DNA of 64,000 nucleotides from Acidimicrobiia bacterium (GTDB lineage: Bacteria > Actinomycetota > Acidimicrobiia > Spongiisociales > UBA5794). The stretch is taken from NCBI GenBank assembly GCA_051002015.1, contig JBPCMS010000078.1, positions 1,564 through 65,563 of the forward strand. Direction: 5' to 3'. Positions within the stretch are counted from its first letter, which is position 1, and each line of letters begins with the position of its first letter. Positions 28,854 through 49,852 of this stretch are shown here, one piece after another. The notes under the pieces are model-generated. The model had not been told where the DNA came from and made no database searches. It saw only the letters and a program-made list of their open reading frames with translations. The position numbers and the translations under genes were made by a program.

Positions 28854-28947
28854 CGGGCCATATCGGCCGCCAGACCCATGGCGAACCCGCCAGGCTGCCC
28901 TAAGCTCCTCGACATCAATCGAAACCGACCGGGCTCTCGCGTCTTCC

Positions 28948-29086
28948 AGCGCCAGCCCTCGCCCCCGTGGTGAGGTGACGAGGAAGAGGGATCATCGAGC
29001 AGTCGGCGGGTGCCCTCTCGGCCGCCCACGGCCGTAGGGACGGAGCAAACCCCGGGGGCGACCCCGGGAACAGAGGCCGTCCCGTG
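28948..29086 (+). ncRNA. glmS ribozyme: glmS ribozyme (GlcN6P-responsive self-cleaving riboswitch)
   Basis: AGCGCCAG...GACGAGG...TCGGCGGGTGCCCTC...GGCCGTAGGGA...CAAACCCCGGGGGCGACCCCGGGAAC matches, block by block, the conserved core I recall from Bacillus/Thermoanaerobacter glmS ribozymes. It ends 65 nt upstream of the glmS ATG. Confidence 0.85.
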
Positions 29087-29150
29087 TGGGGAGCGGAGCG
29101 ATCTCCGCTCGAGTGCCTCCGGTCGCACGACACAGGAGGTCGATGCGCGC

Positions 29151-30977
29151 ATGTGCGGCATCCTTGGCTACGTCGGTCCTCGCCAGGCCGCCCCATTGAT
29201 CCTCGACGGTCTCCGCCGTCTCGAGTACCGCGGGTACGACTCGGCAGGCATCGCCGTGGTCGATGACGGCGCAATCGACATCCGCAAGGCCCAGGGCAAG
29301 ATCGAGCGGCTGTCCGGCATCCTCGAGCAGAAGCCGCTGGCGGGCATGGTGGGGATCGGGCACACCCGCTGGGCCACCCACGGCGAGCCCAGCGACGCCA
29401 ACGCCCACCCCCACACCGATCCGTCTGGCCGGTTCGTCGTGGTCCACAACGGGATCATCGAGAACTTCCACGAGCTGAAGAACGCCCTCACCGCCCAGGG
29501 GCACGGCTTCACGTCCGACACGGACACCGAGATCCTCGCCCATCTGGTCGCCGACGAGTATGAGGGCGACCTGGTCGAGGCGGTGCGGCGCGCCGTTGGT
29601 CACGCCGCAGGCGCATACGCCCTGGTGGTGATGTGCGTCGACGAGCCGGAGCGGATCGTCGCCGTCCGCAAGGTGAGCCCGCTGGTGGTGGGGCTCGGTG
29701 ACGGGGAGACGTTCCTCGCCTCCGACATCCCGGCAGTGCTCCAGCACACCCGTGACTTCCTCGTGGTCGAGGACGGGGAGATGGTGGTGGTCGACGCAGA
29801 CGGCGCCACCATCGAGCACATCGAGGGCGGGGTGATCGACCGCCCGGTGCTCCACGTCGACTGGAACGCCGACCAGGCCGAGAAGGGCGGCTTCGAGCAC
29901 TTCATGCTCAAGGAGATCCACGAGCAGCCCGCCGTCGTGACCGAGACCGTCTCCGGGCGTCTCGACGCCTCGGGCGAGGTGTGGCTCGAGGGGGTCGGAT
30001 TCGACGACGCCTTCGCCCGAGACATGGAGCACCTGTGGGTGACCGCCTGTGGCACCGCCTACCACGCCGGGCTGGTCGGCAGGGAGATCTTCCAGCGGGT
30101 GCTCCGCATCCCCACCTCGGTGGAGTACGCCCACGAGATGCGGTACGGCGACCCGCTGGTGACATCGCCGAGCCTCACCATCGCCATCAGCCAGTCGGGG
30201 GAGACCGCCGACACCCTGGCCGCCGCCAGGCTCGCCCGGAGCAGGGGCTCGCGGCTGCTCGCCCTGACCAATGTGGTGGGCTCGACGCTGAGCCGCGAGG
30301 CGGACGACATCCTGTACACCAGGGCGGGTCCCGAGATCTCGGTGGCGTCAACCAAGGCGTACTCGGCGATGCTGGTGGCCCAGTACCTGCTGGCGCTGCG
30401 CATCGGCCGGGTGCGCGGGGTGGTCGACGCCGACCTCTCGGAGCGGATCGGTCGGGGGCTGCATGCCCTGCCGGGCCAGGTCGAGGCGGTGCTCGGCGAC
30501 GAGGAGTCGGTGGCCAAGGCCGCAATCCAGATCGCCGACGCCCAGGACGTGTACTTCATCGGGCGCGGCCTCGACTACGCCGTTGCCATGGAGGGGTCGC
30601 TCAAGCTGAAGGAGATCAGCTACCTGCACTCCGAGGCGATGCCGGCGGGCGAACTCAAGCACGGCACCCTGGCCCTGGTCACCAAGGGCACACCGGTGAT
30701 CGTGGTGCTCACCCAGGGCGCGGTGTACGACAAGACCATGTCGGCGGTGCAGGAGGTGAAGGCGCGGGGGGCGACCGTGCTCGCCGTCGGCTACGAGGAC
30801 GACTCGTCGATCGGCAGCTTCGCCGACGACGTGCTCAGGATCCCCCGCACCGACGACCTGCTCAGCCCGGTGACCGCCATCGTGCCGCTGCAGCTGCTGG
30901 CGTACCACGTCGCCCGGTTGCGGGGCCACGACATCGACCAGCCGAGGAACCTGGCCAAGTCCGTCACCGTGGAATAG
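29151..30977 (+). CDS. glmS: glutamine--fructose-6-phosphate aminotransferase
   Basis: MCGILGYVG... (N-terminal Cys nucleophile) ...SQSGETADTL...LAKSVTVE C-terminus. Confidence 0.97.
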   Translation: MCGILGYVGPRQAAPLILDGLRRLEYRGYDSAGIAVVDDGAIDIRKAQGKIERLSGILEQKPLAGMVGIGHTRWATHGEPSDANAHPHTDPSGRFVVVHNGIIENFHELKNALTAQGHGFTSDTDTEILAHLVADEYEGDLVEAVRRAVGHAAGAYALVVMCVDEPERIVAVRKVSPLVVGLGDGETFLASDIPAVLQHTRDFLVVEDGEMVVVDADGATIEHIEGGVIDRPVLHVDWNADQAEKGGFEHFMLKEIHEQPAVVTETVSGRLDASGEVWLEGVGFDDAFARDMEHLWVTACGTAYHAGLVGREIFQRVLRIPTSVEYAHEMRYGDPLVTSPSLTIAISQSGETADTLAAARLARSRGSRLLALTNVVGSTLSREADDILYTRAGPEISVASTKAYSAMLVAQYLLALRIGRVRGVVDADLSERIGRGLHALPGQVEAVLGDEESVAKAAIQIADAQDVYFIGRGLDYAVAMEGSLKLKEISYLHSEAMPAGELKHGTLALVTKGTPVIVVLTQGAVYDKTMSAVQEVKARGATVLAVGYEDDSSIGSFADDVLRIPRTDDLLSPVTAIVPLQLLAYHVARLRGHDIDQPRNLAKSVTVE

Positions 30978-46111: not shown

Positions 46112-47215
46112 CTAGCCAGACCGGAGCGCCCGCTCCACCTCGAAGCGCACCTGGAAGTCCGGGTCGTCTCGATGGGCAGCGATGGCGTCCCGGCTCGGAT
46201 CCACCCCCAACTCGCTCAGGGCGCGCACCGCCTTCCATCGCACCCAGGCATCGTTGGCGGCCAGGGCTCGCTCGAACAGGGGACGCAGACCCTCATCGCC
46301 GGTGCCGGCGGCGGCGTCGATGGCGGTGCGCCGCACCACCGCCGAGCGATCCCGCCATCCCGCCTCCACCGCCTCCCTCCGCATCGCAGGGTCGCCGGAC
46401 TCGGCCAGCACCGCGACCGCCACCCGCCGCACCGCGTTGGCCCGATCGGCGAGGGCGGTGACCAGCCGCTCCCGGTGATCGGGTCGGTCCGGATCGAGCA
46501 AGTGAAGCTCGGCCGGTGAGGCGGTGTGCGATCGCCCGCCCTCGCCGAGCATCTCGTCGCGGGTCATCGCCGGGGTCTGCGCCCGGTCCGAGGCGGGGAA
46601 CAGGGCGGTGAGCCGGGCCAGGATGGCGTCGAGCCTGTCCTCCCACGACAACCCGGCTGCAAGACCCACCGTGACGAAGTCGCCGGCGACCATCACGTCG
46701 GAGACGTCCGGGTCGTCGAACAACGCCGCCACCCTGGGATCGTCTGGCGGCTCGGGATCGGTCCTGCGGTACCACACCCCAGGGGCGGGCTCGCCCCCGG
46801 TGACAAACCGGACCTTGCGCGGGTGCGGTGTCGGCTCGGGGACGACGGGGCCCTCGAACACCCGGTCGAACACGGACGGGGCCGCCTTCGCTCCACCCCC
46901 GGTGACCGACAGCAGGTAGCGGCCGGCGGCGATCCCGTGGGTCATCCGGAGCCCGCCGCCACCGAGGTCGTGCTCCCACCATCCCTCGGTCATGTGCGGC
47001 CGGACCAGCCGATCGAGCTCGGCGGCGTGTTCCTCCGTCCAGATCTGGGTTGAGAAGAACCGCTTGAGCAGGGTCTTGAAGGCACCGAGATCCTCGAAGG
47101 GGACATGGACGGCGACCTCGCCGGTGAGGTGCCCCGACGCCTCCGCCACCAGCCCGGAGGCGGCGACGGCGGCGCGGGATGCATCCAGATCCGGGGGAGG
47201 GGCCGCAACCGTCAT
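46112..47215 (-). CDS. uncharacterised protein: central Nfu_N-like module plus C-terminal HEAT-like repeats
   Basis: DVMVAGDFVTVGL...WEDRLDAILARL is Nfu/NifU-N-like. The C-terminus has repeated D..VRR.A...L / VRWKAVRAL / D.QVRFEVERAL helices. ATGA overlap with the cimA stop. Confidence 0.55.
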   Translation of the reverse strand: MTVAAPPPDLDASRAAVAASGLVAEASGHLTGEVAVHVPFEDLGAFKTLLKRFFSTQIWTEEHAAELDRLVRPHMTEGWWEHDLGGGGLRMTHGIAAGRYLLSVTGGGAKAAPSVFDRVFEGPVVPEPTPHPRKVRFVTGGEPAPGVWYRRTDPEPPDDPRVAALFDDPDVSDVMVAGDFVTVGLAAGLSWEDRLDAILARLTALFPASDRAQTPAMTRDEMLGEGGRSHTASPAELHLLDPDRPDHRERLVTALADRANAVRRVAVAVLAESGDPAMRREAVEAGWRDRSAVVRRTAIDAAAGTGDEGLRPLFERALAANDAWVRWKAVRALSELGVDPSRDAIAAHRDDPDFQVRFEVERALRSG

Positions 47216-48814
47216 ACCAATGGTGCCGACCCTATCCCCTCGGTGAGGCGGATCAGCCCGACCAGCAGCCCGTCGACCAGGGCGATCCAGGAGGCGTCGA
47301 TGATGTTCTCGTGGACACCGACGCTGCCCCAGCATTCCTCGCCGTCGCTGTGCTCCACCAGGACCCGCACCCGCGCCGACGAGCCGTCCCGGGAGTCGAG
47401 GTCGCGCACCCGGTAGTCGGTGAGCCGAACCCGGTCGATCTCGGGGTAGCGGGTGCGCAGCCCGGCCCGCAGTGCCCGGTCCAGCGCCGACACCGGCCCG
47501 TCGCCCTCCCGGGTGGTGACGTGCCGCTCGTCGCCCACCATCAGCTTGACGGTCGCCTCCGCCTGGACCTCGTCCTGGCGGTGCTCGATGAACACCCGGT
47601 ACGACTCGAGGGTGAAGAAGTCCTGCTTCCATCCCTGGGCCTGGCGGAGCAGCAGCTCGAAGGATCCGTCTGCGGCCTCGAACTGGTAGCCGAGATGCTC
47701 GAGCTGCTTGATCCGGTCGACCACCGCCTGGGCGTCCCGTTCGGTGAGGTCGAGACCCTGGCTGCGCGCCTTGGCCAGTACGGTGGACCGTCCCGCCAGC
47801 TCGGACACCACGACCCTGGTGGCGTTGCCCACCGCGCCGGGGGAGAGATGCTCGTAGGCGTCCGCCCGTTTCGCCAGCGCAGACGCGTGCAGCCCCGCCT
47901 TGTGGGTGAAGGCCGACCCACCAACATAGGGGCGGTGGGGATCAAGCGTCAGGTTCACCAGATCGGCGACGTGATGCGACACCCTGGTCAGCTTGGCCAT
48001 GCGGTCGTCCGGGATCGTCCGGTAGCCCATCTTCAGGGTCAGGTTCGGGATCACCGAGCACAGGTCGGCGTTGCCGGTCCGCTCGCCGTAGCCGTTGAGG
48101 CACCCCTGCACCTGGTGCACGCCAACCAGGACCGCGGTGATCGAGTTGGCCACCGCCATGGCCGAGTCGTTGTGGAAGTGGCAGCCGAAGGTCGCCTCGG
48201 GGAGCCGGGCGAGCACCTCGGAAACGATGCGTCCGACCGCATGGGGGAGGAACCCGCCGTTGGTGTCGCACAGCACCAGCCGCTCGGCCCCTGCGTTGTG
48301 GGCGGCCTCGAGCACCGACACCGCGAAGCCGGGGTTGGCCCGGTACCCGTCAAAGAAGTGCTCGGCGTCGAAGAACACCCGGCGCCCCTGGGAGCGGAGA
48401 TGGGCGATGGAGCCGGCCACCATCGCCCTCGCCTCGACGGGTGTGGTGCGAAAGCGCATGCTCGACATGGGAGTCCCACGATTTGCCAACCAGGCAGATC
48501 ACCTCGGTCTCGGCGGCCAGCAGGGCGGCGAGCTGCTTGTCGTGCTCGGGGCGGATCCCGGACTTTCGGGTCGACCCGAAGGCGACCATGGTGGCGGTGC
48601 CCAGGTCGAGCTCGGTCCTGGCCCTGGTGAAGAACTCGTCGTCCTTGGGGTTGGCGCCGGGCCAGCCCCCCTCGATGTAGGCGACGCCGAGCTCGTCGAG
48701 CAGACGTGCCACCCGAAGCTTGTCTCCCGCCGTCAGCGAGATCCCCTCCTGCTGGGTGCCGTCACGGAGCGTGGTGTCATAGATCTCGACGTACGGTCGT
48801 TCCTGGTTGCTCAT
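47212..48814 (-). pseudogene. cimA: (R)-citramalate synthase (long IPMS/CimA family) interrupted by a single-base frameshift near 48451-48453
   Basis: The N-part ORF ([27 protein letters not shown]...[10 protein letters not shown]...[13 protein letters not shown]) and the C-part ORF ([18 protein letters not shown]...[10 protein letters not shown]...CHFHNDSAMAVAN...) are in different frames. Total length is 3n+1. AGAGGAA RBS. Confidence 0.8.
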
Positions 48815-48846
48815 GGTTCCTCTGGGGGTGATGGGTCGGGCCCGGT

Positions 48847-48938
48847 AAACGGAAGACCCCCCGCACGAGCGGAGGGTCGAGGGCGGCGCACACACCGATC
48901 GGTGGCGTGTGCGCCTACGGAATGATGATGTCGAGCAT
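48847..48938 (-). promoter_or_regulatory. candidate Ile-sensing attenuator: leader peptide MLDIIIP, a 12-bp hairpin, and a terminator hairpin with UUCCGUUU
   Basis: On the minus strand: ATG CTC GAC ATC ATC ATT CCG TAG (48938-48915). GGCGCACACGCC...GGTGTGTGCGCC (48915-48885). GACCCTCCGC-tcgt-GCGGGGGGTC-TTCCGTTT (48878-48847). It ends 32 nt before the cimA ATG. Confidence 0.5.
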
Positions 48939-49072
48939 GCCGAACCGGTCCGGTGCACGGGGATCCCCACGGAGCGGTTCGTCGTCGCCACCGCGCCAGT
49001 AAACCCGCCACCCGGTTGTCCGTCAAGGGACCCTATGCCTGCCCGGCGTCACCGGCGCTCCGGTGCCCGGCG

Positions 49073-49852
49073 TCACTGGGTCGCTTCGGTCGCCATCTCC
49101 CTGAGCAGCACGGCCAGACCCTGATCGCCGTGGACCTCGACCGCCACCAGCGGTGCCCGGCCCCACAACCACAGGTCGAGCATTCCGGCACTACCCGAGA
49201 TGATCGTGTCCGGATCGTGGACCTCGTCGACGACGACGGCGGCGTCGATGTCGTATGTGGTGCCGCTGTTGGGGGAGGTGCCCGTCATCCGACCCACCAG
49301 CAGGTTCCACGCCTGCTCGCCGGCCTCGATGCGGATCGTCCGGCCGCCGTCGGTGAACATGGCCCATTCGGGAATGCCGCCGATCATCACCCGCAGGATC
49401 TCGTCCACGCCGTCGAGGGCCAATGCGGGGTCGAGCGACGGGCCGAGACCGGCAGCCAGCTCGGCGTCTGCGCGGTGGATCAGCGCCTCGTGGGCCTGGC
49501 GCCGCATGACGAACCCGGCGTTCTGCTGGTCGGACCAGGTGTAACAGGGCGTGGCCGGGTCGGTTGCGGAAAGGGTGCTGACCAGGAAGGTCTTGGCCGA
49601 ATCGAGGGCGTCGACCAGGTTGTCGTCGGCGGGCCGCAATGGCTTGCGGTAGCCGTCCGGAGAGGGCAGCCGCTCGGACACGATCGTCGCCCAGAAGGTC
49701 TGGACCTCGGTGAGGTGCCACAGGAGATCCGCCACCGTCCAGCCCGGTGCGGAGGGCACGGGGCTCGAGGGCGGCACCGACCGGGCGGCATCGATGAGCC
49801 GCTCGGTCTCGCCGTCGATGTAGCCGATGTACTCGGCGGGTTGCAGTCGCAT
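49073..49852 (-). CDS. DinB-fold mycothiol-dependent maleylpyruvate-isomerase-family protein
   Basis: [10 protein letters not shown]...GWTVADLLWHLTEVQTFW...RRQAHEALIHRADAE. Confidence 0.75.
   Translation of the reverse strand: MRLQPAEYIGYIDGETERLIDAARSVPPSSPVPSAPGWTVADLLWHLTEVQTFWATIVSERLPSPDGYRKPLRPADDNLVDALDSAKTFLVSTLSATDPATPCYTWSDQQNAGFVMRRQAHEALIHRADAELAAGLGPSLDPALALDGVDEILRVMIGGIPEWAMFTDGGRTIRIEAGEQAWNLLVGRMTGTSPNSGTTYDIDAAVVVDEVHDPDTIISGSAGMLDLWLWGRAPLVAVEVHGDQGLAVLLREMATEATQ

Follow-up and report, generated by a model that had tools for sequence, protein, structure and literature searches.

A putative isoleucine-sensing leader-peptide attenuator without a recognizable antiterminator upstream of cimA in Acidimicrobiia

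Leader-peptide attenuators of branched-chain amino acid (BCAA) genes are textbook knowledge, and the corresponding leaders of Escherichia coli, namely ThrL and those of the ilvGMEDA and ilvBN operons, are equipped with a Shine-Dalgarno sequence and with the classical 1:2, 2:3 and 3:4 alternative pairings. Here we consider a leader of related design in a 64-kb stretch of DNA from an Acidimicrobiia bacterium (contig JBPCMS010000078.1; the whole stretch is called the window in the following), where a short open reading frame (ORF) with three isoleucine codons at its end, a hairpin at its stop codon and an intrinsic terminator precede cimA, the gene for citramalate synthase. On the basis of sequence comparison we read this arrangement, with a probability of roughly three in four, as a ribosome-mediated, Ile-sensing transcription attenuator controlling cimA; that the leader ORF senses Ile and that transcripts terminate at the conserved terminator is in each case well supported, and the link between the two is what we infer. 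The element resembles ThrL in its mixture of Thr and Ile codons and the E. coli ilv leaders in the mixtures of Val, Ile and Leu codons found among its relatives, and the logic of gauging charged tRNA by the speed of translation is likewise shared, but unlike the E. coli leaders it has neither a Shine-Dalgarno sequence nor alternative pairings, and it matches no Rfam leader family.

Among actinobacterial systems the ilvB1 attenuator of Mycobacterium tuberculosis has experimental support, a ribosome at the stop codon masking the anti-terminator and a stall at the LVVI codons letting it form (PMC13236596). The leader described here has in common with M. tuberculosis ilvB1NC the actinobacterial host, the short ORF with its run of BCAA codons, the stop-adjacent hairpin, the Rho-independent terminator and the biosynthetic gene that follows (PMC13236596). 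It differs in that hairpin and terminator, which are mutually exclusive in M. tuberculosis, share no nucleotides, and furthermore in its Ile-only codons, its cimA target and its occurrence in Acidimicrobiia. Corynebacterium glutamicum ilvBNC likewise has a leader peptide with control codons, adjacent hairpins in the antiterminator and terminator positions and a proposed pausing hairpin (PMC11857589), but the boundary trinucleotide that switches partners there, and the anti-antiterminator, have no conserved equivalent in the present family. In the sections of two accounts that are drawn on here, the ilvL, leuL and trpL leaders of Streptomyces and other actinobacteria are described as leaderless ORFs of 12-18 codons which are enriched in the cognate residue and have hairpins, in many cases also a U tract, downstream of them, much as in our case; the same sections describe no cimA leader, no Acidimicrobiia and no strict abutment of hairpin and stop codon (PMC8079986; PMC1262725). 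They further state that leaderless leader peptides are common in Actinobacteria (PMC8079986) and that many actinobacterial leader peptides have terminators without parts of the classical attenuator (Seliverstov et al. 2005; PMC1262725). The mycobacterial polycysteine ORFs of Canestrari et al. 2020, as far as they are summarized in PMC13236596, are likewise leaderless and combine a codon run for one residue with downstream biosynthetic genes, but they are reported to act on translation by way of Shine-Dalgarno unmasking and without an obvious terminator, whereas a canonical intrinsic terminator is conserved here. Full-text searches of open-access papers yielded no report of a leader peptide or T-box before cimA, or of a leader peptide of any kind from Acidimicrobiia; measured against these papers the leader before cimA and the occurrence of the element in Acidimicrobiia appear to be new, while leaderless BCAA attenuators in Actinobacteria are already documented. 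The element appears to work like a leader-peptide attenuator, yet not like one of the trp type in every part, since a mutually exclusive antiterminator is absent.

The leader and its relatives in Acidimicrobiia

All of the parts named in the original prediction, which had been made from the letters of the window alone, are present: the mini-ORF encoding MLDIIIP, the 12-bp hairpin (hairpin 1), the GC-rich 10-bp hairpin with its T tract, and the 32-nucleotide (nt) distance from the latter to the cimA ATG at 48814 (Table 1). Hairpin 1 and the terminator are separated by 6 nt, and the terminator is called by a terminator scan for which 0.2 sites per 900 nt are expected by chance. A run of at least three Ile codons followed by at most two further codons and a stop occurs just once in the window, both strands included, and a covariance model built from ten relatives, with the window left out, has its sole window match at 48846-48929 on the minus strand (48.2 bits, E = 2e-8). 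The pattern in the window is more than chance. Rfam gave nothing above noise in 48600-49300 at E values up to 10, and across the whole window only a glmS ribozyme reached the gathering threshold, with no Leu, Thr, His or Trp leader, T-box or ilvB-type match. The promoter that had been guessed, TTGACG-N17-TTTACT, proved to be the conserved promoter of the family, even though a strict consensus scan misses it in the window, where the -10 box is without an A at position 2. Furthermore, the 15 nt ATCATCATTCCGTAG with the sensing codons are identical in the relative L001 and in the sister contig L161.

Table 1. Features of the cimA leader in the window and one-base length differences from sister contig L161
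Feature	Position	Strand	Remarks
-35 box TTGACG	49021..49026	-	Hexamer identical in sister contigs L161 and L162
-10 box TTTACT	48998..49003	-	Family consensus CATACT; also TTTACT in L161 and L162; 17 nt from -35 box
Leader ORF	48915..48991	-	GTG at 48991, 6 nt past -10 box; frame broken, one G short in run 48950-48951
Predicted hairpin within leader ORF	48941..48979	-	Part of the clade's in-frame expansion of 33 nt
Mini-ORF MLDIIIP, ATG CTC GAC ATC ATC ATT CCG TAG	48938-48915	-	Last 7 codons and stop of leader ORF
Sensing codons ATC ATC ATT (three Ile)	48921..48929	-	CCG (Pro) comes next, then TAG at 48917-48915
Hairpin 1	48885..48915	-	12 bp, 7-nt loop; RNAfold; first base is the G of TAG
Terminator hairpin, GC-rich	48855..48878	-	10 bp, 4-nt loop; terminator scan and folding
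Interrupted U tract TTCCGTTT	48847..48854	-	TTCCGTT in L161
Shine-Dalgarno-like GAGGA	48818..48822	-	Ends 3 nt 5' of cimA ATG; aligned with GGAG/GAGGA in relatives
cimA	47212..48814	-	Split by one surplus T in run 48451-48453; intact with 533 residues in the sister contig
Length difference in leader	48951-48950	-	GG in window, GGG in L161
Length difference in U tract	48847-48849	-	TTT in window, TT in L161
Length difference 5' of Shine-Dalgarno	48824-48828	-	CCCCC in window, CCCC in L161
Length difference equal to cimA frameshift	48453-48451	-	TTT in window, TT in L161

A genome scan with the C-terminal part of CimA returned 80 loci at 51-78% identity, nearly all of them from metagenome-assembled genomes (MAGs) of Acidimicrobiia. 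The original prediction had suggested checking whether cimA orthologues are preceded by a comparable mini-ORF with Ile codons, and the outcome is clearly positive: at 35 of the 80 loci the 190-nt box upstream of cimA contains at least three Ile codons, zero to two further codons and a stop, and metagenome loci also have leaders of the form III(I)-X-stop before cimA. These short ORFs sit 65-100 nt 5' of cimA and encode peptides such as MTRNCRVFRIIIP, MTSPTTTIIIT and MNGPATSIIIII, with MKKIIIII in the low-GC Actinomarina loci, and a weaker version with two Ile codons is carried by five more genome loci. Elsewhere the same pattern has 15 matches in 1.04 Mb on both strands, or 0.0027 per 190 nt, which corresponds to an approximately 160-fold enrichment before cimA. 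Together with the window the 35 loci make up a set of 36 members that were picked by codon pattern alone, and in every one of them 0-2 codons separate the Ile run from the stop, hairpin 1 starts between -3 and +1 nt relative to the end of the stop codon, and a spacer of 0-7 nt leads to an intrinsic terminator with a stem of 8-12 bp and a U tract; the Shine-Dalgarno sequence and cimA follow 20-45 nt downstream of the terminator.

The covariance model replaced an alignment of the 36 leaders made with MAFFT only, in which the terminator alone was recovered, and it has 64 matches in the window plus the genome loci, to which the metagenome loci add another 31. A promoter of the form TTGACN / (C)ATACT accompanies 73 of 89 model matches, spaced by 17 nt in 66 of these, and in 73 of the 89 an in-frame ATG or GTG is found 6-14 nt past the -10 box, with a mode of 9. 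The leader transcript is probably leaderless or nearly so, since its start codon lies this close to the -10 box. On the model alignment, which is itself fitted to the covariance model, 97.5% of the cells are paired, a share that drops to 79.7% after shuffling and to 42-56% when the partners are slid, and compensatory changes occur in 16 of the 19 modelled pairs, that is in all 9 pairs of hairpin 1 and in 7 of the 10 pairs of the terminator. The layout is common to about 90 Acidimicrobiia loci and very probably represents a real isoleucine-sensing switch.

The composition of the leader peptides was analysed for 70 distinct leaders of 9-16 residues from loci L001-L160, in which the N-terminal parts vary, the III(I)-X-stop end is constant, the Ile codons vary between the synonyms ATC and ATT, and the stop is UAG in 57 cases. 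Ile accounts for 28.8% of the leader residues versus 3.7% in CimA, and Thr, which is enriched directly before the Ile run, for 17.9% versus 6.2%; furthermore the rarer Ile codon ATT makes up 29% of the leader Ile codons versus 6.8% of those in cimA. The last six residues depend on what lies downstream, since they are 52% Ile, 1% Val and 15% Thr in leaders directly before cimA, and 35% Ile, 23% Val and 1% Thr in leaders before leuB-ilvE-cimA. The latter arrangement is found at about 20 Acidimicrobiales loci, where the element is located approximately 2 kb upstream of cimA at the head of a leuB-ilvE-cimA operon and encodes mixed Val and Ile peptides such as MRPQTAAVIIIE and ...VIVIV (L054, at 521-595, and L031, L033, L038, L044, L046, L050, L052, L053, L057, L060, L064, L065, L067, L068, L070, L072, L074, L075 and L078). 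A second copy of the element in L047 (6139-6217) precedes ilvB, the gene for the large subunit of acetolactate synthase, and encodes the peptide MTNTPLTTVLLIT, which ends TVLLIT; in this contig ilvD is found on the opposite strand between cimA and the second leader. The Ile-only run is thus confined to leaders directly before cimA, and codons that match the genes in this way would be expected if charged tRNA is sensed through translation.

That the sensing codons follow the downstream genes, with Ile only before cimA, also supports the notion that the gene in the window encodes the citramalate synthase of the threonine-independent Ile route and not leuA. In addition, its product matches TIGR00977 (citramalate synthase, cut-off 450 for the whole protein), the N-terminal piece scoring 142 bits and the C-terminal piece 498 bits, and the choice of cimA over leuA made in the original prediction is upheld by this match and by the restriction of the Ile-only run to cimA-adjacent leaders. 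The same can be said of its proposal of an Ile-sensing attenuator, which gains support from the conserved end of the ORF, from codons that track the operon and from hairpins that covary.

Two further observations concern the make-up of the family. Six contigs (L007, L042, L043, L045, L049 and L077) are labelled as Armatimonadetes, Acidobacteriota, Verrucomicrobiales or Margulisiibacteriota, with cimA genes that are among the closest relatives of the query, and all but L077 have a leader of the Acidimicrobiia type; these contigs are probably mis-binned or mislabelled. In L046 (594-665) and L033 (640-713) both hairpins are kept and the frame ends in SRCHRW and CFPDRP, respectively, and not in Ile or Val, and these copies may be degenerate or carry indel errors.

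Points against attenuation and the extent of the leader frame

A number of observations weigh against an attenuator at this locus and should be mentioned together. There is no Shine-Dalgarno sequence for the ATG of MLDIIIP in the window, the frame from GTG 48991 misses the Ile codons by one base as assembled, cimA is itself frameshifted as assembled, and the U tract of the window is interrupted (UUCCGUUU). The defining feature of a classical attenuator is furthermore lacking, since no antiterminator was found when every segment pair of the 36 members was evaluated with RNAduplex against shuffles, R1 and R2 being the arms of hairpin 1 and R3 and R4 those of the terminator. Minimum free energy folds with masks for the ribosome, calculated with and without the terminator 3' arm, keep the terminator in every state, and the members have no conserved counterpart of the switch that the junction trinucleotide provides in C. 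glutamicum. Finally, the sections of PMC1262725 drawn on here cite an experiment in which mutating the presumed regulatory codons of the Streptomyces coelicolor ilvB leader had no effect.

As to the reading frame, the 7-codon ORF of the window is shorter than that of every family member, and its ATG is 60 nt away from the -10 box (48938 versus 48998). In L161, with GGG in place of GG, the GTG ORF comprises 25 codons, ends with the same TAG and encodes a peptide of 25 residues. The second sister contig, L162, in which CimA is 81% identical and the gene order alike, has the arrangement TTGACG-N17-TTTACT-N6-GTG followed by a 25-codon ORF, MTTMPHSPDVPATLGRFGLPGVIIP, and then two hairpins. The first codons from GTG 48991 (GTG GCG ACG ACG AAC CGC TCC) can be aligned with the leaders of L002 and L087, and the clade of the window is set apart by an in-frame expansion of 33 nt, by which its leader reaches 25 codons versus 11-14. 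Besides the hairpin predicted within the ORF of the window, others are predicted at 1335-1376 in L161 and at about 1030-1062 in L162, the latter with a different sequence. The idea that the expansion is a repeat or mobile element was rejected, as it is present in a single copy in the window.

Taken together with the family promoter these alignments suggest that MLDIIIP is probably the tail of a 25-codon leaderless ORF starting at GTG 48991 and that its ATG is an internal Met codon. What was originally said of the mini-ORF therefore stands as far as letters, coordinates and Ile codons are concerned, but not in its being a complete ORF, given the 25-codon frames of L161 and L162. The absence of an obvious Shine-Dalgarno sequence, which had been listed as a weakness and is correct for the ATG, is accounted for if the leader start is leaderless at GTG 48991, as it probably is. 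As assembled, the GTG ORF (48350-48991, minus strand) stays open across hairpin 1 and the terminator, continues in frame over the start codon of cimA, and would encode CimA with an N-terminal extension of 59 residues; the missing G probably makes this extension artefactual.

Both frame breaks of the window are most likely consensus errors in homopolymers. The alignment of the window with L161, which covers about 700 nt, contains four one-base length differences, and consensus errors are suggested because every one of them is in a homopolymer run (Table 1). It could be argued instead that the one-base changes in leader and cimA are real mutations and that the window copy is a decaying, non-functional relic, since the leader ORF and cimA are both frameshifted as assembled and since the window and L161 are different strains, with about 25 substitutions in the aligned stretch. 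The restriction of all small indels to homopolymer runs is however the signature of consensus errors, and the promoter, hairpins and terminator of the window are intact and score well. Moreover, cimA has no stop codons or other decay outside the break: residues 1 to about 122 are read from 48814 and the remainder in the frame of the ORF 48489-47212, and the uninterrupted sister protein from L161 (P0001, 533 residues) is 98% identical to the window CimA. We therefore consider a relic unlikely, if somewhat less so than the rival explanations that are discussed below.

Proposed control of termination without strand competition

The lack of an antiterminator holds true for the family as a whole. 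Only R1:R2 (z about -25) and R3:R4 (z about -24) are complementary beyond shuffles, and R2:R3, in which the hairpin-1 3' arm and the spacer are set against the terminator 5' arm, is significantly less complementary than its shuffles (z = +5.4), a pattern that would fit selection against cross-pairing of hairpin 1 with the terminator. Masks representing the footprint only, when applied to the 25-codon leaders of L161 and L162, likewise leave the terminator in place. The original prediction had conceded that no convincing antiterminator could be drawn and had pointed to RNA structure prediction as a means of finding alternative folds; the folding yields no antiterminator fold and a terminator that is kept in every masked state, and what was noted as a weakness of one locus is, by segment pairing, masked folds and junction test alike, a property of the family. 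Hungry-codon frameshifting at the Ile codons, by which the ribosome would read through both hairpins, was also considered as a candidate and was rejected: beyond the terminator the +1 frame stays open in 27 of the 36 members and the -1 frame in 33, so that neither is universal, and these counts have no proper null model.

It may nevertheless be asked if the element is a classical attenuator after all, with an antiterminator that has been missed because it relies on non-canonical or tertiary contacts or on an exchange of 1-3 nt at the hairpin junction. Hairpin 1 does occupy the position of the antiterminator in M. tuberculosis ilvB1, the overlap between antiterminator and terminator in C. glutamicum ilvBNC is only three nucleotides (PMC11857589), and in 16 of the 36 members at least 2 nt of the terminator 5' arm can pair with the stop codon or the codon before it. 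This junction extension is however no better than in shuffled sequences (-0.49 versus -0.47 kcal/mol), a ribosome stalling on the last Ile codon would occlude it, and the remaining cross-pairings are at or below shuffle level, with the terminator surviving all masked folds. A missed antiterminator thus seems rather improbable.

Another possibility is that hairpin 1 is mainly a binding site for a trans-acting factor or a signal for pausing or processing, such that a protein or small RNA is the actual regulator and the Ile ORF has a minor or translational role. The failure to find an antiterminator would agree with this, as would the preservation of the hairpin-1 stem sequence, GCGCACACG/CGUGUGCGC, in close relatives, and a protein-binding reading has been proposed for leuA in Actinobacteria in the sections of PMC1262725 drawn on here. 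Distant members do however change the sequence of the stem freely while retaining the pairing, and the loops are unconserved. In addition, the strict link between codons and genes and the fixed spacing of Ile codons, stop and hairpin are predictions of sensing by translation, and regulation mainly in trans must be regarded as very unlikely. Finally, the notion that the short ORF is there by chance and that the hairpins are the terminator of the upstream gene is refuted by the comparative data. High-GC DNA is admittedly rich in hairpins, and the 189-nt leader taken as a whole folds only modestly better than its shuffles do (z = -1.7), but the ORF pattern is strongly enriched, a conserved promoter separates the ORF from the upstream gene, and the element travels with cimA, leuB-ilvE-cimA or ilvB.

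For the ribosome-mediated attenuator that we favour, read-through must work without strand competition, since hairpin 1 and the terminator share no bases. In our model a 70S ribosome would engage the leaderless 5' end at the time when RNA polymerase is transcribing hairpin 1, and hairpin 1 may pause the polymerase and thereby set the timing or synchronise ribosome and polymerase. When Ile-tRNA is plentiful, the ribosome would reach the UAG, unwind the 5' arm of hairpin 1 and then be released, and the terminator would form to give a transcript of approximately 145 nt that ends near 48847 and leaves cimA off. When Ile-tRNA is scarce, the ribosome would wait with AUC or AUU in the A site, and hairpin 1 would stay folded at the mRNA entrance. 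The distance between the first P-site base and the start of hairpin 1 is about 12 nt when the A site holds the last Ile codon and about 18 nt when it holds the first. Work on the ribosomal helicase has it that the ribosome unwinds mRNA to about +11, and at these distances hairpin 1 would be outside the unwound mRNA in both stalls. The stalled ribosome and the folded hairpin 1, tethered at a distance of only 0-7 nt from where the terminator stem begins, would then hinder closure of the terminator in the exit channel, whereas a terminating ribosome would remove both obstacles. Of all parts of the model this final, steric step is the weakest, and we put it forward tentatively as a best guess. The same reserve is called for when the model is extended to the whole class, as a set of BCAA leader attenuators without antiterminator pairing in which a hairpin at the stop codon, held by the ribosome, might block the terminator sterically or kinetically; such a generalization is doubtful at present, but would, if true, constitute an undescribed way of coupling ribosome position to intrinsic termination.

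Genomic surroundings and biological meaning

The gene upstream of the leader encodes a protein of the mycothiol-dependent maleylpyruvate-isomerase (MDMPI)/DinB family and the one downstream of cimA a HEAT-repeat protein, and with neighbours of this kind cimA is the single gene behind the leader. Elsewhere in the window, the glmS ribozyme that was found in the Rfam search is located at 28937-29093 on the plus strand (87.4 bits, E = 9e-19), and a long ORF that comes after it, 29010-30977, is presumably glmS.

Regulation of a BCAA gene by its end product is in itself expected biology, and the point of interest is rather an architecture without strand competition that extends across a class. If the attenuator operates as proposed, the route to Ile via citramalate would be under end-product control in a large and mostly uncultured class of bacteria. 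The covariance model, together with the rule that the sensing codons match the operon, may furthermore be used for annotating BCAA regulation in MAGs of Acidimicrobiia. Finally, the approximately 90 natural variants, with their very tight geometry and without strand competition, make the mechanism of actinobacterial leaders that have no antiterminator testable.

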